Sequence record: OQ850291
DNA from: Escherichia phage vB_EcoS_ULIM2
Direction: 5' to 3' (one strand)
DNA length: 51,534 nucleotides
The notes below the pieces were generated by a model. It did no database searches. It was not told the origin of the DNA and saw only the letters and a list, made by a program, of their open reading frames with translations. A program made the translations under genes and the position numbers. Below are positions 1,641 through 49,367 of this stretch, one piece after another (position 1 is the stretch's first letter; the number at the start of each line of letters is the position of its first letter).

Positions 1641-1677
1641 TGTAAAATCATCCTATCAACTTTATTCACTTAACTTT

Positions 1678-1692
1678 TAACAAAAAGTGCTA
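1678..1692 (-). promoter_or_regulatory. Conserved palindromic box (TAGCAC-N4-TGTTA) in leftward orientation
   Basis: Reads TAACAAAAAGTGCTA on the plus strand, 24 nt before the chaperone ATG; a TAGGAT -10 candidate lies 22 bp to the left (1650-1655). Confidence 0.4.
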
Positions 1693-7806: not shown

Positions 7807-7812
7807 AATTAA

Positions 7813-7835
7813 CCCGCCTTGCGCGGGTTTTTTTT
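7813..7835 (+). terminator. Terminator hairpin before the tail tip gene (same sequence as at 5634)
   Basis: CCCGC-cttgc-GCGGG followed by 8 T; followed by TATAAT at 7842-7847 and a TAGCAC half-box at 7863-7868. Confidence 0.55.
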
Positions 7836-7883
7836 CGCCTGTATAATGAGTCCACCGATAAATAGCACAAAAAGGTAAACATC

Positions 7884-10800
7884 ATGATTCAAAAAGTGAT
7901 AAGCGGATCTAAAGGTGGGTCACAGAAGCCTCATAACCCAGTTGAGATGGAAGACAATCTAATCTCAATCAACAAAATCAAGATCCTGTTGGCTGTATCT
8001 GATGGTGAAATTGACGAAACATTCAACCTAAAGCAGTTGATGTTTAACTCAGTTCCGGTGCAAAACGAGGATGGATCGTTCAACTTCGAAGGGGTAAAGG
8101 CTGAATTCAGGCCGGGAACTCAGACGCAGGAATACATCAAGGGAATGGAAGATAGCTCTAGTGAGGTAACTGTAAATCGTGAGGTTACTACCGATAACCC
8201 ATACACGATCTCAGTAACCAACAAAACGCTGTCGGCAATCCGTATCAAGATGTTCATGCCTCGCGGCGTACGAATTGAAAGTAACGGTGATAAAAATGGC
8301 GTAAGAGTTGAGTATGAGGTGCAACAAGCTGTTGATGGCGGCTCGTTTGAGACGGTGCTCACCGATGTAATCGAAGGCAAAACAATGTCAGGTTACGATC
8401 GAAGCAGACGTGTAAACCTACCTAACTTCAACAATCAGGTGATATTCAGAGTGGTTCGGAAAACTCCAGACTCTAACGACTCGAACGTTGTTGACGCGAT
8501 TCAGGTAAAGAGCTATGCCGAGGTGATTGATGCTAAATTCCGTTATCCACTGACTGGTCTTCTTTTTGTCGAGTTTGATTCGAAGATGTTCCCAAACCAG
8601 TTACCTACGATCTCAATTCGTAAGCGCTGGAAGATTGTAAACGTTCCGTCAAACTATGATCCAGAATCACGAACTTATAACGGAAATTGGGATGGAACTT
8701 TTAAGAAGGCATGGACGAATAATCCGGCTTGGGTGCTTTATGACCTGATGATTAATCAGCGTTATGGACTGGATCAGAAAGAGCTTGGTATCGCTGTAGA
8801 CAAATGGGCGCTCTATGAGGCGGCGCAATATTGCGACCAGATGGTCCCTGACGGTAAAGGCGGCACTGAGCCTCGCTACCTTTGCGACGTGATAATTCAG
8901 TCACAGACTGATGCGTACAAGGTGATTCGAGATATTTGCTCAATCTTCCGTGGAATGAGCTTTTGGAATGGTGAAAGCATTTCGGTAATCATCGACAGGC
9001 CGCGTGAACCTGCGTACATCTTCACTAATGACAACGTGGTTAATGGTGACTTCTCCTACACGTTCGCAAGCGAAAAGAGCATGTACACGACGTGTAATGT
9101 GATGTTTGATGATGAACAGAACATGTATCAGCAGGACGTTGAGCCAGTATTCGATCGTGAGGCTACTCTACGGTTTGGTAACAACGTAACGAGCATTACA
9201 GCGATCGGTTGCACACGTCGAAGCGAGGCAAACCGACGCGGGAGGTGGATTCTGAAAACTAACCTCCGCAGCACTACGGTAAACTTCGCTACCGGACTTG
9301 AGGGCATGATCCCGACAATCGGAGATGTTGTGGCAATAGCTGATAATTTCTGGTCAAGTAACTTAACGATGAACCTGTCAGGGCGTTTGCTCGAAGTATC
9401 CGGTAGTCAGATTTTCCTGCCGTTCCGCGTTGATGCTCGCGCAGGTGACTTTATCATCTTAAATAAGCCCGATGGCAAGCCTGTGAAGCGCACAATCTCA
9501 AGTGTTAGTGCGGATGGTAAGACTATAGAGGTTAACATCGGCTTTGGCTTTCCTGTGAAGCCTAACACGGTATTTGCAATCGACCGTACCGACATTGCGT
9601 TGCAGCAGTACGTCGTGACCAAAATCGACAAGGGTGATGATGATGAGGAGTTTACCTACAAGATTACGGCGGTTGAGTACGATCCTAACAAGTATGATGA
9701 GATTGATTACGGAGTTAACATCGACGACCGACCGACGAGCATTGTTGAACCAAATCAGATACCTAGACCGGAAAATGTGCAAGTGTCCTCAGAGTCGAGA
9801 ATCGTTCAGGGGATGAGCGTAGAAACGATGATTGTTAGCTGGGATAAAGTGCCGTACGCAGTTTTCTATGACGTCCAGTGGCGAAAGGATAACGGCAACT
9901 GGCAAAATGTACCGCAGACGGCAAATAAAGAGGTATACGTTGAAGGTATTTACGCTGGCAACTATCAGGTTCGCGTTCGCTCTGTCGCTGGTTCCGGTAC
10001 GACTTCAGGATGGTCAAATATCGTAGCTGCGACGCTGACGGGTAAACAAGGTGAGCCGGGCCGACCGATTAACCTTACAGCTACGGATGATGTTGTTTTT
10101 GGTATCCGTACAAAATGGGGGTTCTCTGATGGTTCTGGAGATACGGCCTATACAGAGTTGCAACAGTCACCGGATGGAACAGTGGATAACGCAAGTTTGC
10201 TTTCTTTGATTCCGTACCCGCAGCATGAGTATTATCACTCACCGATGCCTGGAGGGAATATCGTGTGGTATCGGGTAAGGACGGTTGATAGGATCGGTAA
10301 CGTGTCTCAGTGGACTGATTTTGTCAGAGGTATGGCATCAACAAACGTTGACGATATCATTGGAGAGATTTCTGTCGATATCGAAAACTCGCCGGGTTAC
10401 GAGTGGCTTGTTGATAACGCAACCGACAACGCGGCGCAGAACGCAGCGAACGCAGAGGCAGCAATTGAGAACGCGCTAGCCAATGACAAAGACGCGATCT
10501 ACATGAAGAAGGAGAACGGAAAGCGAAAAGCTGAGTACACGAAATCACTTAAACTTATTGCTGATGAGACGCAGGCGCGAGTGACGTCGATCGAGCAATT
10601 GAAGGCAAGTTTTGGAGATCAGATTAGCGCGAGCAATAGTGAATTGCGCGAGGTTATCGCAACCGAGACTGAGGCACTATCTCGTGAGATTGACCAGCTT
10701 AAGGCTCAGATTGGAGACGATATTCAGGCAAGTTTAACAGATATCCGCAAGGCTATAGCAAACGAGACTGAGGCTAGAACGCAAGCTGATCTTACTTTGA

Positions 10801-13029: not shown

Positions 13030-13057
13030 TTGACTAAACGCTGTTAATGGCTATAAT
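13030..13057 (+). promoter_or_regulatory. Sigma70-type promoter for the recombination operon (TTGACT-16-TATAAT)
   Basis: TTGACT at 13030-13035 and TATAAT at 13052-13057; leader TTCATCGTAAACGAAGGAGA precedes the ATG at 13089. Confidence 0.6.
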
Positions 13058-17738: not shown

Positions 17739-17814
17739 AGTATAAACTCCTTAAGTAAATAGCACGAATTGCTAAGCACTGATTTTATCATTGTGCTATG
17801 AGTCTTGCAATGGT

Positions 17815-18835: not shown

Positions 18836-19288
18836 TTAACTAAAAATGCTATTGGTCGTTCCGATATCTTCCTTCTTCACAACCCGCATGAATTTCTTGT
18901 TCTTGCATCGCTTCTCAAGGCACTTGCCGTTACCATCAAACTTGAGGTCGAATCTCAGCCATGCTGCGCGGTATCCTTTACACCCCTGTCGGCGGTAAGC
19001 GCGATGCGCAGCCTCAGCACCTTGCCACGAAATCATGTTGCGTTCTTTCCAGCCTTGCACCGTCTGATTTGTTACTTTTAGTGCCTTTGCGCATGCCGCA
19101 GGGCCACCATAATATTCGATAAGCGCATCAAGTCGTGCTCGCAATCCAGCGCGTGTTTCTTCTTTATGAATATAGAATCCGCAGCGCTGTCGTGGCTTTT
19201 TGTCTTTACCGCGTCGAGTTCCGTTGTTACCATTGATGTGACGTTTATCGATTTCACCAGTTGACTCCGCGATGCGTTGAATACTCAT
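18836..19288 (-). CDS. Putative DNA-binding protein with Cro/YdaS-like helix-turn-helix (150 aa)
   Basis: AKALKVTNQTVQGWKERN resembles Cro/YdaS-type HTH; basic termini; a palindromic box lies in its leader. Confidence 0.45.
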   Translation of the reverse strand: MSIQRIAESTGEIDKRHINGNNGTRRGKDKKPRQRCGFYIHKEETRAGLRARLDALIEYYGGPAACAKALKVTNQTVQGWKERNMISWQGAEAAHRAYRRQGCKGYRAAWLRFDLKFDGNGKCLEKRCKNKKFMRVVKKEDIGTTNSIFS

Positions 19289-19301: not shown

Positions 19302-19344
19302 TAGCACTTTTTGCTAAAAACGTTTACTGTATGCCGTGTATTAT
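19302..19344 (+). promoter_or_regulatory. Box-type promoter for the helicase operon
   Basis: TAGCAC (19302-19307), TTGCTA (19311-19316), 22-bp spacer, TATTAT (19339-19344), enclosed by inverted repeat CGTTTAC/GTAAACG. Confidence 0.5.
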
Positions 19345-19368
19345 AGCGTAAACGCTACAATGATTCAA
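19340..19368 (-). promoter_or_regulatory. Sigma70-type promoter for the HTH gene, face-to-face with the helicase promoter
   Basis: Minus strand TTGAAT (19363-19368), 17-bp spacer, TATAAT (19340-19345); the -10 overlaps the plus-strand -10 by 5 bp. Confidence 0.5.
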
Positions 19369-21400: not shown

Positions 21401-21813
21401 TTACAGACAAAGGTGATTATTTAGAGTTTTACGAACGAGATCCTAGCGATACGAGAAAGGAGGATGCTCATCAAGTTGATTGTGTGTCTTGGCTGAAATA
21501 CAATTTCCCTCACCTTCTATTTTGGCACACAGTTAATGAAGGTGAAAAAACAATCACGTCGGCGCTCAGGGATGAGCAGGCCGGATTACTTAAAGGCGTG
21601 TCAGACTTCGTTATCCTGATTGGCGTCAACTCACGATACCCGTTTGCAGCAATCGAACTCAAGCGGGTTAATAAGTCAGGCAAAGGAAAGGCGTCACCAG
21701 TCAGCGACAAGCAAAGGGAATTTCTCCGAAAGGTCCGGGAGCGTGGCGGCTTCTCTGCCGTCGCATACGGATTCGAGCAATTCAAGATCGCAATTTACGA
21801 AATTATGAAATAG
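21397..21813 (+). CDS. VRR-NUC-like nuclease domain protein (138 aa)
   Basis: SDFVILIG ... AIELKR resembles the D..E.K core of VRR-NUC/PD-(D/E)XK domains; follows the helicase gene. Confidence 0.5.
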   Translation: MITDKGDYLEFYERDPSDTRKEDAHQVDCVSWLKYNFPHLLFWHTVNEGEKTITSALRDEQAGLLKGVSDFVILIGVNSRYPFAAIELKRVNKSGKGKASPVSDKQREFLRKVRERGGFSAVAYGFEQFKIAIYEIMK

Positions 21814-21853
21814 CACTTTTTGTTAAAACTGCCGGAATGGAATCTGGCATTAT
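21811..21853 (+). promoter_or_regulatory. Box-type promoter for the methyltransferase gene
   Basis: TAGCAC (21811-21816), TTGTTA (21820-21825), 22 bp, CATTAT (21848-21853). Confidence 0.45.
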
Positions 21854-22594: not shown

Positions 22595-22842
22595 TGAGCG
22601 AAAAAATGGTTCCTGTTAAATTAACTGAGCAAGGTTTATGGCTTCTTTATCGCGCTACGTGCTGCGAAATTATGGAGCAAAACGGATTGACTCAGGATGT
22701 TATTGGTTGCGATCTGTGGGAGTTCACTATTTCTCTTGATATGTCTTTCGATGAGATAAAAAATGAATATATCGAGCGTTGGCCTTCAATTATCCAGAAA
22801 GACGTAGAGGAACTTAAAGCAGATACGATCGTACAGCACTAA
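22591..22842 (+). CDS. Hypothetical protein (83 aa)
   Basis: ATGA overlap with the methyltransferase stop; AAGGAAAG RBS. Confidence 0.5.
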   Translation: MMSEKMVPVKLTEQGLWLLYRATCCEIMEQNGLTQDVIGCDLWEFTISLDMSFDEIKNEYIERWPSIIQKDVEELKADTIVQH

Positions 22843-22876
22843 TTGCTAAAAATACCCGGCGAAAGTCGGGTATAGT
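22835..22876 (+). promoter_or_regulatory. Box-type promoter
   Basis: CAGCAC-N3-TTGCTA (22835-22848), 22 bp, TATAGT (22871-22876), leader CATCGAAACGAAATGAGGAA. Confidence 0.5.
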
Positions 22877-22908
22877 TATTTCATCGAAACGAAATGAGGA
22901 ATCAGAAG

Positions 22909-23678: not shown

Positions 23679-24830
23679 ATGTCACAAGCTAAAATCACTA
23701 CCGAGCAACTCGTCGAAGAGCGCATGAACGGCCTTACACTTCGAGAGATCGCGGAAAAGTACGGTATGCACATTCGCACTGTCGAGGCGCGTCACGCAAA
23801 ACTTGCAAAAGAAGGCCACTTCCACGGTAACGAGCATGTTGCTAAAAACGTGCCGGAAGGATTCATGGTAAAAGGTACATCAACGATGATTCGCGGAGAT
23901 GGGACCGAGGTAGTTCGCTGGGTTAAGACCGATCAGGACCGTGAGAAGATTGCGGCAATGATGGAAGCGGCGCGTATTGCATTCTGTGAAGACCTGCCTC
24001 GAGCAAAACCAACTGAGCTACTAACATCGCAAGGACTTACGACAGCGATGGGTAAGCTGGCGCTCTATCCGGTATTCGATCTCCATATTGGCGCGCTTGC
24101 TCATAAGCATGAGTGCGGAGAGAACTACTCTACCGACGTAGCGGAAAAAGTGCTTGGCGACTTCTTCAATTATGCGATCGATATTGCGCCGAACGCAGAG
24201 AAGGCTGTTCTGTTAATCGGCGGCGACTTCCTTCACTCTGACGGCCTTGACGCTGTTACCCCGGCAAGTGGTCACGTTCTAGATCAGGATTCACGATATG
24301 CGAAATTAGTGCATGTTGCGATTCGTTCGGTACGCCGAGCCATCGACAAAATGCTTATGAAACACAAAGAAGTCGAGGTTCAGGTTATCGAAGGGAACCA
24401 CGATCAGTCTGGGATGATTTGGCTGCGCGCTGCAATGTCGGCATATTATGAAGACGAGCCGCGAGTATTCGTTGACGTTAGTCCTATGATTCTGCATAAG
24501 ACTCGTTGGGGAAATACCTTGTTGGGATACACTCACGGTCACACTATGAAAAAGGCAGACACGCGACTTGCGGCAATGGCGGCAGATTTCCGATCAGACT
24601 TCGGTGAGAGCAAGTATGTGTATACTCATAGCGGTCACTGGCATCACCAGACAATCACTGAGCACTCACTCGGTATTGATGAGGTTCACGGCCAGTTAGG
24701 CGCGAAAGATGCATACGCAGCACGCGGAGGGTGGCGCTCATATCGCCAGGCGGCTGTAATTGTTTACGATAAGCAGTTTGGGGAAATCGGTCGTTTCATC
24801 TATCGTCCAGAAATGACAGGATCGCACTAA
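23679..24830 (+). CDS. Calcineurin-like metallophosphoesterase (383 aa)
   Basis: Phosphoesterase motifs in order: DLH, GDFLHSDG, GNHD, GHT, GHWHH. Confidence 0.6.
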   Translation: MSQAKITTEQLVEERMNGLTLREIAEKYGMHIRTVEARHAKLAKEGHFHGNEHVAKNVPEGFMVKGTSTMIRGDGTEVVRWVKTDQDREKIAAMMEAARIAFCEDLPRAKPTELLTSQGLTTAMGKLALYPVFDLHIGALAHKHECGENYSTDVAEKVLGDFFNYAIDIAPNAEKAVLLIGGDFLHSDGLDAVTPASGHVLDQDSRYAKLVHVAIRSVRRAIDKMLMKHKEVEVQVIEGNHDQSGMIWLRAAMSAYYEDEPRVFVDVSPMILHKTRWGNTLLGYTHGHTMKKADTRLAAMAADFRSDFGESKYVYTHSGHWHHQTITEHSLGIDEVHGQLGAKDAYAARGGWRSYRQAAVIVYDKQFGEIGRFIYRPEMTGSH

Positions 24831-24864
24831 TTGATAAAAACGCCCGAATGGATTCGGGCATAGT
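24823..24864 (+). promoter_or_regulatory. Box-type promoter
   Basis: TCGCAC-N3-TTGATA (24823-24836), 22 bp, CATAGT (24859-24864) within inverted repeat CGCCCGAATGG/GATTCGGGC; leader CATCGAAAACGAAGAGG. Confidence 0.45.
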
Positions 24865-26558: not shown

Positions 26559-26601
26559 AATATACCCGATACGAGATCGGGTGTTTTAACAAAAAGTGCT
26601 A
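26559..26601 (-). promoter_or_regulatory. Box-type promoter (leftward)
   Basis: Minus strand TAGCAC-N4-TGTTA (26587-26601), 22 bp, TATATT (26559-26564) inside inverted repeat CCCGAT/ATCGGG. Confidence 0.5.
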
Positions 26602-28720: not shown

Positions 28721-28763
28721 ATGATACACCGCCAATGGTACACGCGTTTTGCAAAAAGTGCTA
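28721..28763 (-). promoter_or_regulatory. Box-type promoter (leftward) for the ATPase gene
   Basis: Minus strand TAGCAC-N3-TTGCAA (28749-28763), 22 bp, TATCAT (28721-28726). Confidence 0.45.
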
Positions 28764-29738: not shown

Positions 29739-29782
29739 AATATACCTTACTCCATATTTATTGTCTTTAGCAATTAGTGCTA
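29739..29782 (-). promoter_or_regulatory. Box-type promoter (leftward)
   Basis: Minus strand TAGCAC-N3-TTGCTA (29768-29782), then TATATT (29739-29744) within inverted repeat GGAGTA/TACTCC. Confidence 0.45.
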
Positions 29783-30855: not shown

Positions 30856-30898
30856 ACTATACCAGCCATCCCGGATGCGCGTTTAGCAAAAAGTGCTA
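30856..30898 (-). promoter_or_regulatory. Box-type promoter (leftward)
   Basis: Minus strand TAGCAC-N3-TTGCTA (30884-30898), 22 bp, TATAGT (30856-30861). Confidence 0.5.
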
Positions 30899-31471: not shown

Positions 31472-31514
31472 ACTATACCCCGATTCCCTTCGGGGAGTTT
31501 AGCAATTCGTGCTA
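31472..31514 (-). promoter_or_regulatory. Box-type promoter (leftward)
   Basis: Minus strand TAGCAC-N3-TTGCTA (31500-31514), 22 bp, TATAGT (31472-31477) within inverted repeat CCCCGAAGGG/AATCGGGG. Confidence 0.5.
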
Positions 31515-31888: not shown

Positions 31889-31931
31889 ATAATACCCCAT
31901 CGTGAGATCTGGCGTTTAGCAATTCGTGCTA
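31889..31931 (-). promoter_or_regulatory. Box-type promoter (leftward)
   Basis: Minus strand TAGCAC-N3-TTGCTA (31917-31931), 22 bp, TATTAT (31889-31894). Confidence 0.5.
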
Positions 31932-32909: not shown

Positions 32910-33099
32910 TTCCAATAATTGCTCATTATTCCATCAATTGTGGAATATGTGGAATAATTCTGATTGTTATTGATTGCGAATGACGAAACGTGATTATTGC
33001 ATGATGTGCAACAGTTGGTTGATTTGTTGATGAGAACGCAATGATTGTTAGAGGGAGGATCTGGTGTTGCCCGGCTCGCCTGGTAGTCATCTCCATTTT

Positions 33100-33114
33100 T
33101 AGCAAAAAGTGCTA
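33100..33114 (-). promoter_or_regulatory. Second palindromic box upstream of the PP-loop gene, no obvious -10
   Basis: TAGCAC-N3-TTGCTA on the minus strand; the position 22 bp downstream is not -10-like. Confidence 0.35.
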
Positions 33115-33391
33115 TCGATTACGATTATGCTTGATTGTGTGTTAATCCATGTATATGATTTGCATAAATCGCAATCGTAGACAAAATTACACCAAATTAC
33201 GCCCTATAATATACATATAGATATATGTATATATATAATATATAAGTGTTTTTTTATTTATATATATAGATACTATTATTTGTAATATGGCTGTATAGCG
33301 TGTCTACTATGTTAATCGTTGGATGCTCTGGTTATGATATTCATGTTTATATATACAGTAGTTTTATCGGCTCATATTTATATGGGAAAAG

Positions 33392-33418
33392 CGATTAACA
33401 CGATTAACACGATTAACC
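33392..33418. repeat. Three tandem copies of a 9-bp unit (CGATTAACA)
   Basis: CGATTAACA CGATTAACA CGATTAACC read directly, inside the AT-rich divergent region. Confidence 0.6.
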
Positions 33419-34120: not shown

Positions 34121-34450
34121 ATGTTTACTAATATGTTTGATCCGAAGGTGATGGAAAGACGAAAACTGGAAAGTGAGAAGCAGGAAGAGAACATCAAGAA
34201 GATAGCTGATGCCGTGACTGGTAAAAAATTAATCAAAGTAAACCTTAATACCATTGGCTCAGCGTACGACGTAAGAGGTCTTGGCAAGAAAGAGGCGTCA
34301 GTGAAGGTTCTTAGGCTTATTCACGAAATTAAGAATCAGTACAAGATAACCCTAAAGATGAAAAGCCTTGAGGTTCCGCACTGTGAGCTTGTGAACATCA
34401 CGGAGCCGGAAGGGTGGGAAATAACCGACGTCGAGTTTATCGTAGAATAG
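34121..34450 (+). CDS. Hypothetical protein (110 aa)
   Basis: ATG at 34121 with AAGGAGAGG RBS. Confidence 0.5.
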   Translation: MFTNMFDPKVMERRKLESEKQEENIKKIADAVTGKKLIKVNLNTIGSAYDVRGLGKKEASVKVLRLIHEIKNQYKITLKMKSLEVPHCELVNITEPEGWEITDVEFIVE

Positions 34451-34490
34451 CACTTTTTGTTAAAACCGGATCGGGATAACCTGGTATAGT
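34448..34490 (+). promoter_or_regulatory. Box-type promoter
   Basis: TAGCAC (34448-34453), TTGTTA (34457-34462), 22 bp, TATAGT (34485-34490); perfect 8-bp inverted repeat GGGATAAC/GTTATCCC (34473-34496) around the -10. Confidence 0.55.
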
Positions 34491-34521
34491 TATCCCATCA
34501 ACAACGAATGAGGAAGCGAAG

Positions 34522-34718: not shown

Positions 34719-35189
34719 ATGACGACCATTACCGTATTTCTGGCTAAAGATAATGTTGATGGCGCTATGTCATTCTTCGCGTTCGAGCATGAAGCCGGAT
34801 CGCACTGGCATATGTACACTCATTACACGGTCATCTCAATTGAGGCTTACGACGGCGATTTGCTCACTGACAAGCTGAGTAATTTTATTGATGTGGTTAA
34901 GGATAACGACGGCTGCGAATGGAAAGAAGATAACGAAGTTATGCGAATGTTTGATATGGTCAATCCGGTTCGCCTTGTATCTTTTGAGCTTGGTTCTGAT
35001 GTGACCGTTGAGGTGAGAAAGGCTGGTGAGTTATTGCCAGGAATGCGTGTGCTGACTGGTTACTCAGGTCGTAAGGTATGGCGCACTGTATCTAAGGTTC
35101 GCCAGCGTTCGGCAACTTGCTATAGCATACACTTTGAGGATGGTTGGAACGAGGTCGCCGGAAGCGGCGTGAAGTATCTCACCAAATAG
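34719..35189 (+). CDS. Hypothetical protein (156 aa)
   Basis: ATG 3 nt after the upstream stop. Confidence 0.5.
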   Translation: MTTITVFLAKDNVDGAMSFFAFEHEAGSHWHMYTHYTVISIEAYDGDLLTDKLSNFIDVVKDNDGCEWKEDNEVMRMFDMVNPVRLVSFELGSDVTVEVRKAGELLPGMRVLTGYSGRKVWRTVSKVRQRSATCYSIHFEDGWNEVAGSGVKYLTK

Positions 35190-35229
35190 CACGAATTGTT
35201 AAAACCGGATCGTGGCATCTTGATATAGT
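35187..35229 (+). promoter_or_regulatory. Box-type promoter with an unusually long leader
   Basis: TAGCAC (35187-35192), TTGTTA (35196-35201), 22 bp, TATAGT (35224-35229); about 170 nt of repeat-containing leader before the ATG at 35408. Confidence 0.5.
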
Positions 35230-36011: not shown

Positions 36012-36181
36012 TGCGCATTCTAATTTGCATGATGGCGGCAGTCGCCATAACTATCCTGGTTGTGTCCGGCTGCGGAGAGGTAAAAGAGCGATGTCATGAA
36101 ACCGGGAACCAGGTTACTACGTTCGTGATGGTCGGCAACGTATTGCTACCAATCACATCAAATGAAATCACTTGCGAATAG
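36008..36181 (+). CDS. Small putative lipoprotein (57 aa), not in the ORF track
   Basis: Overlaps the upstream stop; signal-like N-terminus MMRILICMMAAVAITILVVSGC with lipobox VSGC. Confidence 0.4.
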   Translation: MMRILICMMAAVAITILVVSGCGEVKERCHETGNQVTTFVMVGNVLLPITSNEITCE

Positions 36182-36221
36182 CACCTTTTGTTAAAACTCA
36201 ATTCCGGGGTTGCGATATAGT
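36179..36221 (+). promoter_or_regulatory. Box-type promoter
   Basis: TAGCAC (36179-36184), TTGTTA (36188-36193), 22 bp, TATAGT (36216-36221) within inverted repeat GGGGTT/AACCCC. Confidence 0.5.
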
Positions 36222-36741: not shown

Positions 36742-36782
36742 GCACGAATTGTTAAAAGGGGATTTGGCCTGACTGGTATAAT
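36740..36782 (+). promoter_or_regulatory. Box-type promoter
   Basis: AAGCAC-N3-TTGTTA (36740-36754), 22 bp, TATAAT (36777-36782) within inverted repeat GGGGAT/ATCCCC. Confidence 0.5.
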
Positions 36783-37319: not shown

Positions 37320-37468
37320 TGACGGCGTGGATTTTGATTATCTTGATGAGTACCGGGGCGGATCACGTATACATGAACAGCCAGCAATCATGCAACGAGG
37401 CTCAGGCAGTTATTGCAGAGAATAAGCCGTTCGGGTACGAAGTGAAAACGATGTGTGTTAAAAAATAG
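37319..37468 (+). CDS. Small protein with hydrophobic N-terminus (49 aa), not in the ORF track
   Basis: TAATG overlap with the upstream stop; translation begins MTAWILIILMSTG. Confidence 0.35.
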   Translation: MTAWILIILMSTGADHVYMNSQQSCNEAQAVIAENKPFGYEVKTMCVKK

Positions 37469-37508
37469 CACGAATTGCTAAACCTTCCGCAAGGCCATTT
37501 GATACAGT
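37466..37508 (+). promoter_or_regulatory. Box-type promoter
   Basis: TAGCAC (37466-37471), TTGCTA (37475-37480), 22 bp, TACAGT (37503-37508) within inverted repeat GGCCA/TGGCC. Confidence 0.5.
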
Positions 37509-38635: not shown

Positions 38636-38838
38636 CCGCAGAAGATGCAGCACGTGACGCAGTGGAAGGAATGCGACCAAATACGTCCAGAATCGCCCAC
38701 TGCTACAAATTTGATGTGTCGGCAGTGCAGTTGGTACACGAAATTTTAAGGCTCCCACAAGTCGATTCAGCGCGCGTGGTGACGTGCTTAAAAAATTATT
38801 TTTGCATCACTATTAAAACGAATAGCACGAATTGCTAA
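38620..38838 (+). CDS. Hypothetical protein (72 aa)
   Basis: ORF-track ORF with GGGGG RBS; its 3' end runs into a box-type promoter. Confidence 0.4.
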   Translation: MATIMTAEDAARDAVEGMRPNTSRIAHCYKFDVSAVQLVHEILRLPQVDSARVVTCLKNYFCITIKTNSTNC

Positions 38839-38865
38839 AACTTACTCAAGGGTATTTGATAGAAT
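38823..38865 (+). promoter_or_regulatory. Box-type promoter
   Basis: TAGCAC (38823-38828), TTGCTA (38832-38837), 22 bp, TAGAAT (38860-38865). Confidence 0.5.
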
Positions 38866-39749: not shown

Positions 39750-40322
39750 ATGAAAACAGCTATCATTTTAAACGGCGCACCAGGAGTGGGTAAGGACACT
39801 ATCGGATGCATCCTGGCCGATACTTACGAGCACGTAGCGCTCCGCAGCTTCAAGGCTCCGATGTTTGATATTGCCCGAGCAATATTGGGTGAGGCTAATT
39901 TCGAATATTTCATGTTCTTGTATGAGGACCGTCGCTATAAAGAAGAACCAGCATCAATCCTGAACGGTAAAAGCCCGCGCCAGTTTATGATCTGGATTAG
40001 CGAAGAAGTCATCAAGCCGCAGTTCGGAAATCGCTTCTTCGGCATGCGAGCGGAAAGCAAGGTGAAAGAGTCTCACTCTCTTTCGGTATTTACTGACGGT
40101 GGATTCAAAGACGAAGTTTTGCAGATGATTGAAGGTGATATCCAGGTCAAGCTATGTCGAATCCATCGCAACGGTTGCAACTTTGACAACGACAGCCGCG
40201 ACTATATCTATCTTGACGATATGATTGGGGTCAACGGTTATCAGGAATGTGACTTCTTTTCTGTCGAAGGCCATCCAGAAATTACCGCTCAGCACATAGC
40301 CGCCACGTTCATCAATAAATAG
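39750..40322 (+). CDS. P-loop nucleotide kinase, dNMP kinase-like (190 aa)
   Basis: N-terminal GAPGVGKDT P-loop, as in phage deoxynucleoside monophosphate kinases (T4 gp1 has SGKDT). Confidence 0.5.
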   Translation: MKTAIILNGAPGVGKDTIGCILADTYEHVALRSFKAPMFDIARAILGEANFEYFMFLYEDRRYKEEPASILNGKSPRQFMIWISEEVIKPQFGNRFFGMRAESKVKESHSLSVFTDGGFKDEVLQMIEGDIQVKLCRIHRNGCNFDNDSRDYIYLDDMIGVNGYQECDFFSVEGHPEITAQHIAATFINK

Positions 40323-40362
40323 CACGAATTGCTAAAACGTCGGTGGGGTGATTTGATATAGT
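40320..40362 (+). promoter_or_regulatory. Box-type promoter
   Basis: TAGCAC (40320-40325), TTGCTA (40329-40334), 22 bp, TGATATAGT ending at 40362. Confidence 0.55.
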
Positions 40363-40394
40363 TACCTCATCGACAACGAAGAGAGAAAATCGAA

Positions 40395-40924: not shown

Positions 40925-41154
40925 TGTTCGGTTTAAGCGAAGCGGAGTGGAATGTGGTAAAGCGTGCCGCGAAAGAATTAAACAAATTCGTTAGCGGAAT
41001 GAAGAAAGAAGATCGAAAAAACGACAAGATTATGATTGACGTAATATCGACTCACCACAAAAAGGTCGAGCTACTCATCGACCGCTACAAATTTGTCTGG
41101 ACTGCCGGGTATATTGCAGGGCGCGTAGGAAACAAAGAAGGGGATTACGAATAA
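40924..41154 (+). CDS. Hypothetical protein (76 aa)
   Basis: Overlapping stop/start with neighbours. Confidence 0.5.
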   Translation: MFGLSEAEWNVVKRAAKELNKFVSGMKKEDRKNDKIMIDVISTHHKKVELLIDRYKFVWTAGYIAGRVGNKEGDYE

Positions 41155-41357
41155 TGGCTAATTTACCGAAGAAAGGCGATCAGGTTCGGTGTGTCACCTC
41201 ACGCAATGGCGATGCTTTCTCAGCCGGGTGCGCGTACGACGTAGAAAAGGTTAGTAAATCAAAGAGACTTGTATTCGTGTACGGGGATGATGGAAATCTG
41301 CATGAGATTGACTACCCGCAGGATGTAACTAATGGTCAATTCGAAATTAATGATTGA
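41154..41357 (+). CDS. Hypothetical protein (67 aa)
   Basis: TAATG overlap with the upstream gene. Confidence 0.5.
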   Translation: MANLPKKGDQVRCVTSRNGDAFSAGCAYDVEKVSKSKRLVFVYGDDGNLHEIDYPQDVTNGQFEIND

Positions 41358-41522
41358 CCTACGTCACTGAGCGGTGATAGTATTAATCCCGTAGACAGAC
41401 GAGGCGCAATTAAGCGCAACGCGTGAGACGACTCTCACACTTCCAGCTAACAAGCTCGGTTGCATAGTGGTTAAGCAACGCCGCAGACCCGTAAGCGGCA
41501 ACAATTTAAAGAGGATTGCATA
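41358..41522 (+). other. GC-rich structured noncoding element with short palindromes and repeated motifs
   Basis: Palindromes GCGCAATTAAGCGC (41404-41417), GTGAGA-cgac-TCTCAC (41423-41438), GTTGC-N11-GCAAC (41459-41479), CCGC-N10-GCGG (41481-41498); repeated TTAAGC..CAAC at 41409, 41471, 41491; no ORF or promoter box. Confidence 0.4.
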
Positions 41523-41684
41523 ATGCAAAACACTAAAGACGAATCAGTTAAAATTGAAATTAAAGTAACTCGCAACGGTGAAACCACTCGTTATAAAAAA
41601 CGATTAAATCTTGGCGAGGCTGTTATTGGTCGCATTGCTGGCGTTATGATTAAGGCGCAGGAAGATGAAGCGATTCAAAGTTAA
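41523..41684 (+). CDS. Small protein (53 aa), not in the ORF track
   Basis: ATG 8 nt after AAGAGG. Confidence 0.35.
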   Translation: MQNTKDESVKIEIKVTRNGETTRYKKRLNLGEAVIGRIAGVMIKAQEDEAIQS

Positions 41685-41850
41685 ATTAATTATTCGAAAG
41701 ATGGGAATGTTTTGCCAGTCGTGCAAGCAATCTTTCGAAGCTGAATTATCAGCAACCAGTCAGGCAGAAGCCATCATGAAAGCAAAAAAACTTTCCGGCG
41801 CTAACCTTGACACTCACAAAATAAATATTGAATTAATCAAGGAGATTTAA
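41665..41850 (+). CDS. Hypothetical small protein (61 aa), start uncertain
   Basis: ORF-track ORF; overlaps the previous small ORF in another frame. Confidence 0.35.
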   Translation: MKRFKVKLIIRKMGMFCQSCKQSFEAELSATSQAEAIMKAKKLSGANLDTHKINIELIKEI

Positions 41851-41851
41851 C

Positions 41852-42079
41852 ATGACCATTTTTTTATTGATTATCGCTGGTATCGTTATTTTTGGTGCTG
41901 GTTTGTTTGCTGGGTTCGCACTTGTTGCGGCAGCGATTGCGATGGACGCGAAGGATAAAACTGGTGTATGGCTGACCTACTCACCTAAGAAGGACCAATG
42001 GGAAATGATTGGCGACCTTGCTCACTGCTACTCTAAAGCCAAGACCCACCCTAAAGGCATTAAACGACGATTATCGTGA
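41852..42079 (+). CDS. Small membrane protein (75 aa)
   Basis: AAGGAG RBS; N-terminal hydrophobic stretch IFLLIIAGIVIFGAGLFAGFALVAAAIA. Confidence 0.5.
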   Translation: MTIFLLIIAGIVIFGAGLFAGFALVAAAIAMDAKDKTGVWLTYSPKKDQWEMIGDLAHCYSKAKTHPKGIKRRLS

Positions 42080-42088
42080 TAAATACTA

Positions 42089-42109
42089 ACCCGCTTCGGC
42101 GGGTTTTTT
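42089..42109 (+). terminator. Rho-independent terminator before the packaging module
   Basis: CCCGC-ttcg-GCGGG followed by 7 T. Confidence 0.6.
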
Positions 42110-42122
42110 TATGTCTGCAATA

Positions 42123-42146
42123 TGGTAAAATAGCACTAAATGTTAA
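42123..42146 (+). promoter_or_regulatory. Late promoter candidate with the palindromic box downstream of the -10
   Basis: TGgTAAAAT at 42123-42131 followed immediately by TAGCAC-N4-TGTTA (42131-42146); TerS ATG at 42164. Confidence 0.4.
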
Positions 42147-42163
42147 ACAAAGAGGATGGATTT

Positions 42164-42688
42164 ATGAGTGAACCTAAGAACGCTCCCGTAGTCCAGGGTG
42201 GTAATTTCAAAGAGCTATACAAGAAAAAATTCGGCACTGTTCTTGCGAAGAACCGGGCAATGACGCCTGAACAATTGTTCGATCTGTCAGTGAAGTACTT
42301 TGAATGGGCCGAGGACAACGCGATCAAGGCGTCAGAATCAGCCAGCTTTCAGGGTGGCGTTTATGAATCGCTTGTTCATAAACCGCGCGTCTTCACCTGG
42401 ACCGGGTATCGACTATTTATCGGTGCAAGCGAGGCCGCAATCATTAAGTGGAAGCGTGAGGAAGAATACAGTGAGGTTATGGAGTTCGTGGAATCCGTAA
42501 TCAACGAGCAAAAATTTCAGCTTGCCGCAAACGGCGTTATTAACGCCTCATTTATCGGCAAAGATCTCGGAATAGACAAGCCAGCTTCAATCAACATCGA
42601 AAACTCAGCAGCTTCAGCGTCGACCACAGTCGCCACTACTGAGGACGCAATGAAAGAGGCTGTAAACAGTATTCTTGAAATGCTTTAA
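42164..42688 (+). CDS. Terminase small subunit candidate (174 aa)
   Basis: Immediately upstream of the large terminase gene; AAGAGGA RBS. Function from position only. Confidence 0.5.
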   Translation: MSEPKNAPVVQGGNFKELYKKKFGTVLAKNRAMTPEQLFDLSVKYFEWAEDNAIKASESASFQGGVYESLVHKPRVFTWTGYRLFIGASEAAIIKWKREEEYSEVMEFVESVINEQKFQLAANGVINASFIGKDLGIDKPASINIENSAASASTTVATTEDAMKEAVNSILEML

Positions 42689-42726
42689 CGTTACGGGCGC
42701 GCAAGCACCCATACAGGAGAATTGAT

Positions 42727-44295
42727 ATGATTCAATGGGAAGAACTCGACGCAACTCAGAAGTTGGCGATCAAAAAAATGAGCGAGGCCAATTTTGAAAA
42801 AATGATTCGGATCTGGTTCCAGCTTATGCAGGCGCAGCAGTTCCAGCCTAACTGGCATCACCTTTACCTCTGTCACGAAGTGGAGGAAATTATTGCAGGC
42901 CGACGCGGCAACACTATCTTTAACGTCACGCCAGGCTCCGGTAAAACTGAGGTGTTCTCAATTCACCTTCCGGTGTACGCAATGCTCAAGTGTAAAAAGG
43001 TGAGAAACCTTAACGTGTCGTTTGCCGACAGCTTAGTTAAGCGTAACAGTAAGCGTGTCCGTGAGATTATCAGCAGCAACGAATTTCAAGAGCTATGGCC
43101 TTGCAAGTTCGGTACATCGAAAGATGAGGAGATGCAGGTTCTTAACGAAGATGGAAAGGTTTGGTTTGAGTTGATATCCGCAGCGGCTGGCGGTCGTATT
43201 ACTGGTTCGCGTGGTGGCTACATGATGCCGGGATTCTCAGGGATGGTAATGCTCGACGACATCGACAAGCCTGATGATATGTTCTCAAAGGTTAAGCGTG
43301 AGCGTACGCACATGCTATTGAAAAACACCATCCGTTCCCGTCGTATGCATAACGAGACGCCTATTATTGCAATTCAGCAGCGACTACATGCCCAGGACTC
43401 AACCTGGTTCATGATGAATGGCGGCATGGGTATCGATTTCGACCAAATATCAATCCCGGCGCTTGTTACTGAAGAATACGGAAAGACGCTTCCTGACTGG
43501 TTGCAGCCTTACTTTGAGCGCGACGTTTTGTCGTCTGAGTATGTTGAATTGGACGGTGTTAAGCATTACTCTTTTTGGCCCAGCAAGGAAAGTGTGCACG
43601 ACCTGCTAGCTTTACGAGAAGCAGATCAGTATACCTTTGATTCTCAGTATCAGCAGAAGCCGATCGCGCTGGGTGGCTCCGTGTTTAACTCAGAGTGGTG
43701 GACTTATTACGGCAACAGCCTTGACGCTGACGAGCCAGATCCTGGTAAATATGATTACCGATTCATCACTGCCGATACCGCTCAGAAGACAGGCGAGCTA
43801 AACGACTACACGGTATTTTGTTTGTGGGGCAAGAAGAATGATAAGGTTTACTTTATCGACGGCATTCGCGGAAAGTGGGAAGCGCCGGATATGGAGAGGC
43901 AATTTACAGCTTTCGTCAATCAGGCATGGAGGCACAATAAATCAATGGGGGTACTTCGTAAAATCTATGTGGAAGATAAGGCGAGCGGTACGGGCTTAAT
44001 CCAGAACCTAAGGAAAAAGACTCCGATATCCATCACTCCATTGCAGCGTAACAAAGACAAAGTTACCCGAGCTATGGATGCTCAGCCAGTTATTAAAGCC
44101 GGGCGTGTGGTTCTGCCAGAAGAGCACCCTATGCTTGCTGAAATTATCGCTGAGCACAGCGCCTTTACTTACGATGACACCCACCCGCATGATGATATCG
44201 TCGATAACTTCATGGATGCGGCGAACATCGAATTGCTGACCATTGATGATCCTATCGAGAGAATGAAGCGACTCGCCGGGATGGTTAAGCGGTAA
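42727..44295 (+). CDS. Terminase large subunit (522 aa)
   Basis: Walker A VTPGSGKTEV near the N-terminus, acidic nuclease-type C-terminal half, followed by the portal gene. Confidence 0.8.
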   Translation: MIQWEELDATQKLAIKKMSEANFEKMIRIWFQLMQAQQFQPNWHHLYLCHEVEEIIAGRRGNTIFNVTPGSGKTEVFSIHLPVYAMLKCKKVRNLNVSFADSLVKRNSKRVREIISSNEFQELWPCKFGTSKDEEMQVLNEDGKVWFELISAAAGGRITGSRGGYMMPGFSGMVMLDDIDKPDDMFSKVKRERTHMLLKNTIRSRRMHNETPIIAIQQRLHAQDSTWFMMNGGMGIDFDQISIPALVTEEYGKTLPDWLQPYFERDVLSSEYVELDGVKHYSFWPSKESVHDLLALREADQYTFDSQYQQKPIALGGSVFNSEWWTYYGNSLDADEPDPGKYDYRFITADTAQKTGELNDYTVFCLWGKKNDKVYFIDGIRGKWEAPDMERQFTAFVNQAWRHNKSMGVLRKIYVEDKASGTGLIQNLRKKTPISITPLQRNKDKVTRAMDAQPVIKAGRVVLPEEHPMLAEIIAEHSAFTYDDTHPHDDIVDNFMDAANIELLTIDDPIERMKRLAGMVKR

Positions 44296-49297: not shown

Positions 49298-49318
49298 CAT
49301 AAAAACACTTTAACGCTT

Positions 49319-49333
49319 TAACAAAAAGTGCTA
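49319..49333 (-). promoter_or_regulatory. Palindromic box in leftward orientation at the end of paralog B
   Basis: Reads TAACAAAAAGTGCTA on the plus strand; candidate -10 TATACA 22 bp to the left. Confidence 0.35.
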
Positions 49334-49341
49334 TTATTGAA

Positions 49342-49367
49342 GCCGTGAACATAATCACGGCTTTTTT
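49342..49367 (+). terminator. Rho-independent terminator before the major capsid gene
   Basis: GCCGTGA-acataa-TCACGGC followed by TTTTTT. Confidence 0.6.

Follow-up and report, generated by a model that had tools for sequence, protein, structure and literature searches.

Marbox-like repeats at early and late promoters of the T1-like phage vB_EcoS_ULIM2, predicted sites for the host regulators MarA, SoxS and Rob

Escherichia phage vB_EcoS_ULIM2 (sequence record OQ850291) is a T1-like siphophage (Tunavirus, Drexlerviridae). Its 51,534 nucleotides (nt), analysed as a whole and called the window here, share 94% DNA identity with phage T1 over the region 41000-44000 and follow the gene order of the T1 record, circularly permuted. 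Tail genes (1 to ~11.3 kb) are followed by replication and lysis genes (~13-26 kb), and by two early arms, one leftward (26.3-33.1 kb) and one rightward (33.4-42.1 kb), after which the late genes start at 42164 with terS, encoding the terminase small subunit (42164..42688, + strand; 94% DNA identity to T1 terS; Pfam GP3_package, E = 7e-10). To our knowledge, T1 encodes no RNA polymerase or sigma factor of its own. Here we describe a box, TAGCACnnnnTGYTA, which lies at a fixed distance upstream of the -10 hexamer of early promoters and within or just after the core promoter of late genes including terS, and we consider its likeness to the marbox of the bacterial host.

With up to one mismatch, TAGCACnnnnTGYTA gives 37 strand hits (~26 sites) in the window against 1.4 expected, while the bare TAGCAC hexamer is without significant enrichment (33 observed vs 24 +/- 5 in shuffles). 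The geometry of the box was determined from every copy in the window, T1, TLS, Rtp and the Klebsiella phage Sushi (five genomes, 108 boxes). A [T/C]AnnnT hexamer stands exactly 22 nt 3' of the box in 78/108 boxes (~72%; next offset: 12), so that the position of about -42 given to the box of the accessory blocks in the first-pass annotation can be stated precisely as -49 to -35. These canonical boxes have a single orientation relative to the downstream -10 and gene, and their promoters have a -10 and no -35 hexamer. Promoter marks that were not used in the selection are kept, namely G-14 (64/78), T-12 (68/78) and A+1 (67/78; 'cA' at -1/+1), and the register-aligned consensus from -52 to -31 reads aaA-TAGCAC-(t/g)ww-TTG(c/t)TA-AAac. 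The modules sit 5' of early, replication and accessory genes, often overlapping the stop codon of the preceding gene. A 19-mer scan of viral contigs found multi-copy loci only on T1-like contigs of ~50 kb.

Marboxes are the sites of the host AraC-family proteins MarA, SoxS and Rob (RamA in Klebsiella and Salmonella). The published pattern, 5'-gcannwwntgnnaaa-3', is non-palindromic and oriented (PMC12052159; 2025, PLoS Genetics, same group as Sharma et al.), and a 15-mer consensus, 5'-gcactaattgctaaa-3', contains an A site GCAC and a B site YAAA (PMC5684230). The former, which was derived independently of the window, has 23 exact matches to GCAnnWWnTGnnAAA in it, against 1.02 expected and a shuffle maximum of 4, and 22 of the 23 are boxes. 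The 15-mer consensus gcactaattgctaaa occurs exactly at 22836 (+) and 29766 (-) and with one mismatch at seven more sites. The variable box positions -42 and -41 are A or T only, like the 'ww' of the marbox, and the phage consensus is asymmetric, with C at -44, Y at -37 and AAA at -35 to -33.

The position of the phage site is that of a class II activator, defined here as a forward marbox overlapping the -35 at a fixed -10 distance, with its centre between -36 and -55. The forward marbox of the modules spans -47 to -33, ends 20 nt from the -10 and takes the place of the -35, and all canonical copies face the same way relative to the promoter. In the structure of the Rob-RNA polymerase complex on micF, a class II promoter, Rob contacts -47G and -45A (PMC9178005); the GCAC of the phage modules has its G at -47 and its A at -45, the same positions. 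At E. coli K-12 micF (cAGCACTGAATGTCAAAAc) the -10 is 35 nt from the G of GCAC and 20 nt from the 15-mer end, and both distances recur unchanged in the phage modules. The exact marbox match, the one-way orientation and the asymmetry favour a host MarA/SoxS/Rob-type protein over a phage regulator. Judged from these sequence features, we give an even chance to the proposal that the box is a consensus marbox and a predicted site for host MarA, SoxS or Rob; binding by these proteins in vivo is something we infer.

The search for a phage-encoded protein of this kind gave negative results. Searching the six-frame open reading frames (ORFs) of the window with MarA and SoxS (phmmer) returned noise only, alignment of three phage helix-turn-helix (HTH) families with MarA/SoxS (hhalign) gave probabilities of at most 2.8%, and a Pfam search at E <= 10 with two unknown HTH proteins produced no hits. 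The gp10-like protein is predicted to have a winged helix and no AraC fold (AlphaFold2 (AF2) model, Foldseek). A phage-encoded MarA-like protein was rejected on these grounds, and the likelier binder is host Rob, MarA or SoxS, not one of the candidate phage proteins that the first-pass annotation had suggested for testing.

Canonical modules occur throughout the early and replication regions of the window. On the + strand, class II marboxes lie at 21813..21827 (before the dam gene, with the -10 20 nt after the 15-mer), 22836..22850 (exact consensus marbox, GCACTAATTGCTAAA) and 24824..24838. On the - strand they lie at 26585..26599 in the leftward early arm, then at 28747..28761, 29766..29780 (class II-like, again the exact consensus GCACTAATTGCTAAA, with the -10 at 21 nt), 30882..30896, 31498..31512 and 31915..31929. 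The rightward early arm begins its series on the + strand at 34450..34464, followed by 35189..35203, 36181..36195, 36742..36756, 37468..37482, 38825..38839 and 40322..40336. A further perfect marbox, GCACTTTTTGCTAAA, at 33098-33112 (-), lies in the interval separating the early arms, close to the ends of the T1 genome. No -10 stands at the class II distance from it and no evident gene follows it; the same site is found in T1 at ~105.

Nearly every canonical module also has an inverted repeat between the marbox and the predicted start (-34 to +6), for example at 34465-34505, 40337-40376 and 22851-22880. Its sequence is variable and its complementarity is kept (mean minimum free energy -11.5 kcal/mol, mean z -3.1 vs shuffles, 77% of modules below z = -1.5). 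Two layouts occur: a GC-rich, terminator-like stem ending at the -10, and stem arms on either side of a -10 that lies in the loop. It may define where the upstream transcript has its 3' end, or fold into a cruciform in the DNA. At 13030-13057, 5' of the exonuclease VIII gene, there is a near-consensus sigma70 promoter (TTGACT-17-TATAAT) without a marbox, followed by the same cATCGtAAACGAAGGAG leader as in the marbox modules; it is a third promoter class, which is activator-independent.

Late promoters were compared across related loci drawn from viral contigs, with conserved proteins as anchors. At terS, an intrinsic terminator (42088..42110, +) closes the rightward early block just 5' of P_terS, and a terminator is kept at this place in all Drexlerviridae loci examined. 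The elements that the first-pass annotation had placed here and at J, the tail tip gene discussed below, were recovered at the same coordinates: the extended -10 TGgTAAAAT (42123..42131, +) and the box TAGCACTAAATGTTA (42131-42145, +), and at J the TATAAT, the TAGCAC half-box and the ATG. In ~35 diverse lineages the terminator is followed after ~12 nt by an extended -10, TGnTA(t/a/c)A(A/C)T, in the forms TGgTAAAAT, TGcTAAAAT, TGgTATAAT, TGtTATAAT, TGaTATACT and TGgTACAAT, with gcTATAAT in TLS; judging by this conservation, it is a real Drexlerviridae-wide promoter. The terS box has no mismatch to TAGCACnnnnTGYTA and shares its T at 42131 with the -10, and the forward marbox GCACTAAATGTTAAA (42133-42147, +) has none to GCAnnWWnTGnnAAA; it spans ~-5 to +10 of P_terS. 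The box also occurs in two lineages whose TerS identity is only 70-75%; across the three lineages 22/23 nt of TAAAATAGCACnAAATGTTAAAC are invariant and the flanks diverge. An ATG at 42140, inside the box, is in frame with terS and opens an ORF eight codons longer (42140-42688), with no recognisable ribosome-binding site.

The promoter of the major capsid protein (MCP) gene, P_mcp (49310..49337, +), consists of TTAACG, a 16-nt spacer and TGcTATTAT. A reversed marbox (49317-49331; -27 to -13) fills the spacer, and the TG of the extended -10 belongs to it. Sequence is normally free to vary in a promoter spacer, yet the full reversed box is found in the same register in 27/35 distinct lineage contexts (MCP identity 55-100%), in promoters of near-consensus form (TTGCAC, TTGACC or TTGAAC, then TGcTATCAT, TATTAT or TATATT). 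A terminator-like hairpin (49339-49364) lies directly 3' of P_mcp, with the predicted start at ~49344 inside its 5' arm; P_mcp transcripts lacking part of the stem would escape termination, and upstream read-through would be stopped.

The side tail fibre promoter, P_stf (17760..17790, -), has TGaTAAAAT at 17790-17782, then 7 nt, then a reversed box at 17774-17760, and its marbox spans ~-1 to +14. The layout is the same in T1 and in Rtp (TGcTACAAT + 6 nt + box) and is absent in TLS and Sushi. In the leader of the tape-measure chaperone (1643..1690, +), TAAAAT at 1643-1648 is followed by a reversed marbox at 1676-1690 (~+22 to +36), which among the four reference genomes is present in T1 only. 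For the reversed boxes we considered an antisense class II promoter and rejected it at MCP and stf, where the required offset holds no -10. At the chaperone box a -10 is present: read on the minus strand, the site shows exact class II geometry, with TGaTAGGAT 20 nt after the marbox (TGaTAAGAT in T1), and would drive antisense transcription over a short distance, into the terminator of the major tail gene.

At J, a terminator (7811-7835) precedes P_J, with its -10 TATAAT (7842..7847, +; TATAAT or TACAAT across lineages) and the box TAGCACAAAAAGGTAAA (7863..7879, +; TAGCAC at 7863-7868) 5' of the J ATG at 7884. The forward marbox at 7865-7879 has one mismatch to the published pattern and spans ~+12 to +26. 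Since the bare TAGCAC hexamer is not enriched, this half-box needed comparative support, and it received it: ~25 distinct lineages share the order terminator, TATAAT or TACAAT, 15 nt, (T/C)AGCACAAAAGGTTAAAA, 4-6 nt, ATG. The 3' half of the J box (GGTTA) doubles as the Shine-Dalgarno sequence (SD), and lineages with a separate SD keep TGTTA. The distal TAGCAC half is the best conserved, though unneeded for the SD. Webervirus has no J box. In Rtp-like phages (L229-L235, L244) the J promoter, TGtAGAATGGCACAAATGaTCAAAA, has a degenerate marbox adjoining the -10, with the geometry of P_terS in T1.

A box also lies in a divergent switch region (19302..19368, both strands) between the genes for a helicase and a Cro-like HTH regulator. 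Relative to the helicase promoter P_hel (-10 TATTAT, 19339-19344, +) the marbox (19304-19318) has class II placement, and relative to P_reg, a strong sigma70 promoter for the regulator (TTGAAT-17-TATAAT, 19368-19340, -), it lies at +16 to +30. The two -10 hexamers overlap, so that RNA polymerase can occupy only one at a time, and the arrangement is kept in ~60 distinct loci (helicase identity 50-99%).

The positional dichotomy of the first-pass annotation is borne out and extends further than terS and J: at terS, MCP, stf, J and the chaperone the box lies in or after the core promoter. The late copies vary in orientation and position, unlike the fixed early position. Marboxes with operator-type placement have been defined by a centre between -35 and +25 (PMC12052159). 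The centres at terS (~+3), MCP (-20), stf (+7), J (+19) and P_reg (+23) fall within this range, and that of the chaperone (+29) falls just outside it.

A mechanism consistent with these positions would use one kind of host protein in two ways. Of the marbox proteins, only Rob is abundant in cells free of stress. A host marbox protein bound in place of the -35 would switch on or boost about 20 promoters of early, replication and accessory genes, and Rob, or stress-induced MarA or SoxS, would interfere with initiation at P_terS, P_mcp and P_stf, where the marbox overlaps the footprint of RNA polymerase; at P_J the protein would cover the ribosome-binding site of the leader. As long as the factor is free and the early promoters fire, output from the late structural promoters would be reduced. 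Class II activation from upstream and repression by a marbox in the core promoter are both documented experimentally in E. coli (PMC12052159, PMC9178005). That a host marbox protein activates the early class II modules and interferes at the late promoters seems to us, from the sequence, a proposal on which belief and disbelief are evenly balanced. The earlier suggestion of one factor with opposite effects according to position is in part upheld, by the positional dichotomy and the marbox precedents; the terS box, being clade-specific, does not serve as a general late switch.

Several observations weigh against this mechanism. Little MarA or SoxS is present unless the cell is under stress. Rob, for its part, is reported to be kept mostly in a sequestered, inactive state (PMC5684230), and at the sigma28 promoter flgBP2 a marbox at -16 to -30 activates by distorting base pairing at -11 (PMC12781870). 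In E. coli, marboxes in or after the core promoter usually repress, as the spacer marbox of pbpG does (PMC12052159), but with flgBP2 activated, position by itself does not give the sign at late promoters. Marbox sites at +12 to +36 are poor positions for repressing initiation, and in about half of the early modules a complete TG extended -10 could allow firing with no activator. Outside the Tunavirus clade the terS box is missing: TLS, Rtp and Webervirus have the promoter alone. In one natural genome (L004/L023) a mutation has turned its TAGCAC into TAACAC, and the box is evidently dispensable. T-49, A-48, T-40, T-39 and T-36 of the phage box are near-invariant, a tighter constraint than in the marbox, and the pseudo-palindromic form of the box (TAGCA-N5-TGCTA) could also accommodate a dimeric HTH protein of the phage. 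In the literature on T1-like phages we found no binding, expression, transcriptome, start-site or regulator study.

The last of these sequence features leads to the Cro-like regulator (phrog_2856, T1 gp23 homologue; 18836..19288, -; AF2 predicted local distance difference test (pLDDT) score 84), a secondary candidate for the box-binding protein. A regulator dimer might bind TAGCA-N5-TGCTA, activating from -42 in the manner of lambda cI at PRM and repressing the late promoters and its own leader, with the likeness to the marbox coincidental or secondary. The core resembles the dimeric Cro proteins Xfaso1 and N15 (AF2 model; probability 1.0, template modelling (TM) score 0.72); a PDB sequence search with the regulator gave no match. 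Its gene has its own strong sigma70 promoter (P57 in TLS Table S1) and always carries a box 1-2 nt 5' of the SD, within the divergent switch (~60 distinct loci); regulator family and box are conserved side by side throughout, the box has its centre at -42, and it has invariant positions beyond the marbox consensus. The helicase promoter, however, already accounts for the box near the regulator gene, as its class II site. The box is also functionally asymmetric: its orientation is the same in ~80 modules, position 6 is C, position 13 is Y and an AAA tail follows, as is typical of a monomeric protein with two HTH motifs and not of a symmetric dimer, and the published marbox is matched exactly in sequence and spacing. 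We consider binding by the regulator unlikely. An invariant box leaves no room for showing covariation with the regulator. Within the regulator family, conservation peaks outside the HTH, in N-terminal residues 5-35 (RIAxSTGEIDKRxxNGNNGTRRGKDKKxRKR), with many invariant positions and a low pLDDT of ~60, and the C-terminal region has conserved cysteines.

The boxes of the late promoters may instead lack any regulatory role in their own right, being left behind by cassette shuffling of the kind proposed for promoter early stem-loop (PeSL) elements, or kept because their end in reversed orientation, GTGCTA, provides the TGnTA of an extended -10 at MCP and A-rich, SD-like sequence at J. The terS box is limited to one clade, other genera have a working promoter that lacks it, and a natural mutant exists; the MCP box end forms the TGcTA of the -10, the 3' half of the J box is the SD, and the chaperone box is found in T1 only of the reference genomes. 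Promoter/stem-loop cassettes are, moreover, known drivers of shuffling in T4-like phages (PMC2839356, PMC4122927). The conservation goes beyond what this explanation needs: the entire 15-nt MCP box, not only its TGcTA end, is kept at 55-100% MCP identity, 22/23 nt are invariant at terS despite diverging flanks, and at J it is the distal TAGCAC half that is best conserved. We regard the absence of any role as quite unlikely.

Alternatively, the sign at the late promoters could be reversed, with a marbox protein at or over the -10 helping promoter opening, so that late promoters are also activated and there is no on/off opposition. The activation of flgBP2 by MarA from -16 to -30 (PMC12781870) is a precedent, and the MCP marbox at -27 to -13 likewise adjoins the -10. 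That precedent, however, is a sigma28 promoter with defective opening, whereas P_mcp is a near-consensus sigma70 promoter; the sites at terS (-5 to +10) and stf (-1 to +14) cover the start, where RNA polymerase must bind, and pbpG, with its marbox in the spacer, is repressed. Activation of the late promoters appears distinctly improbable, and interference by a host marbox protein is the effect retained here.

It is barely credible that the box acts as RNA, as a hairpin with a 5-bp stem UAGCA/UGCUA and a 5-nt loop bound by a protein for antitermination or translational control: position 13 is only C or T, which keeps the stem through G-U pairing, late boxes lie in 5' leaders beside the SD, and structured hairpins follow the box, but the stem is weak, the canonical box is 5' of the predicted start and so outside the transcript, the terS transcript would start inside the box, and the exact 22-nt spacing to a -10 with G-14 and A+1 is a constraint at the DNA level, which disfavours boxB-like antitermination, RNA hairpins and translational operators alike. 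Other candidates were rejected on sequence or spacing. In a sigma54 promoter (TGGCAC-N5-TTGC) the GG and GC elements stand 10 nt apart; the spacing in the box (TAGCAC-N3-TTGC) falls short of this by 2 nt, and AG takes the place of GG. TTGYTA as a -35 at 22 nt is outside the sigma70 range, and the hairpin sizes are too variable for extrusion to correct this. The conserved G and C positions do not fit an UP element, and ~25 copies do not fit a packaging (pac) site or signal. Stoperators of the mycobacteriophage L5 type are asymmetric repeats of one orientation inside transcription units, where the phage repressor binds them to stop elongation, and their positions bear no constant relation to promoter elements. 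They are disfavoured by the ~72% of copies at exactly 22 nt from a -10, by the virulent lifestyle of the phage and by the failure to identify an L5 gp71-like repressor.

A stronger version of the mechanism would make the host stress-regulator pool a developmental timer of T1-like phages. A fixed pool of Rob (or induced MarA/SoxS) would activate the ~20 class II promoters and occupy the MCP, terS, stf and J promoters. Host synthesis would then stop while the genome replicates, with ~25 sites per copy, and the factor would be titrated away, so that transcription from the early promoters wanes and the late ones become free. Both the direction of the effect at late promoters and the existence of any timing mechanism are what we infer, and the timer itself we hold to be rather improbable.

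The repeat itself is already known, and the mechanism proposed for it is of a known kind. A 2024 paper on TLS described 18 intergenic 21-nt direct repeats (DRs), aaATAGCACnnnTTGnTAAAA, ~76 nt 5' of start codons (PMC11447400). They were also noted in T1, Rtp and Rogue1, with their function left as an open question and stoperators, enhancers and UP elements suggested, and Table S1 of that paper lists DR7, a reverse copy before the major head gene, and DR8 before J (PMC11447400). These repeats are the same element as the box, DR7 and DR8 being late-region copies; the fixed -10 spacing, the marbox identity and the late-promoter positions are not part of that account (PMC11447400). Our literature search found no paper linking marboxes with phage promoters or equating the 21-nt repeat with the marbox; what appears new is this equation, together with the fixed class II geometry and the recognition of a late-promoter class.

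The closest counterparts are the class II marbox promoters of E. coli (micF, lpxCP2, lpxLP1 and rfaYP1), which have the same consensus, forward orientation, 20-nt spacing and GCAC at -47 to -44. The phage sites differ in lying on a virulent genome at 20-25 copies per 50 kb, in having a variable inverted repeat between marbox and start, and in being much nearer to the consensus and more uniform than the degenerate chromosomal marboxes; their binding is predicted from sequence. Schneiders and Levy reportedly found rob, purA and hdeA to be repressed by core-promoter marboxes. The late boxes of the phage resemble such sites, including those of pbpG (repressed) and lpxCP1 (PMC12052159), in lying in the spacer (MCP) or over the start (terS, stf) in either orientation, and differ from them at J and the chaperone, where they are further downstream (+12 to +36).

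Lambda cI at PRM/PR and phi29 p4 are regulators that activate or repress according to site position. The phage system is like these in having an activating site near -42 at promoters without a good -35, an operator-like site elsewhere and a divergent switch (P_reg/P_hel); unlike them, its factor is probably a monomeric host AraC-family protein, and the sites are many more. The PeSL cassettes of T4-like phages likewise place a promoter and stem-loop before nearly every small accessory gene and may aid shuffling (PMC2839356, PMC4122927). PeSL elements have an ordinary sigma70 -35 and -10, whereas the phage module has a marbox for the -35 and its stem-loop between marbox and start. The module was therefore rejected as a PeSL cassette even though a stem-loop is present, since the distance from TTGYTA to the -10 is 22 nt and not 17, and -35 to -30 reads AAAacn.

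Two further features lie between the early arms of the window. The segment 33190-33300 is extremely AT-rich, with alternating TA and palindromic sequence (tatatacatatagatatatgtatatatataatatata...), and three tandem GATTAACAC-type repeats (gcgattaacacgattaacacgattaacc) occupy 33391-33418, just 5' of the rightward early genes. Both are candidate origin, pac or early control sequences.

The marbox identity makes the function of the 21-nt repeat directly testable with reagents already at hand: rob, marA and soxS mutants, the purified proteins, and salicylate, paraquat and bile salts as inducers. If it is true, a virulent enterobacterial phage family, which includes therapy candidates against Klebsiella and E. 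coli, wires its transcription to the host regulators of antibiotic and stress resistance, and the mar/sox/rob status of the host, often altered in clinical isolates, would be linked to phage productivity. The window would also offer ~20 near-consensus natural marbox promoters for the study of these activators. Were the timer true as well, the early-to-late switch of T1-like phages would be coupled to replication and to gut signals such as Rob-activating bile salts.

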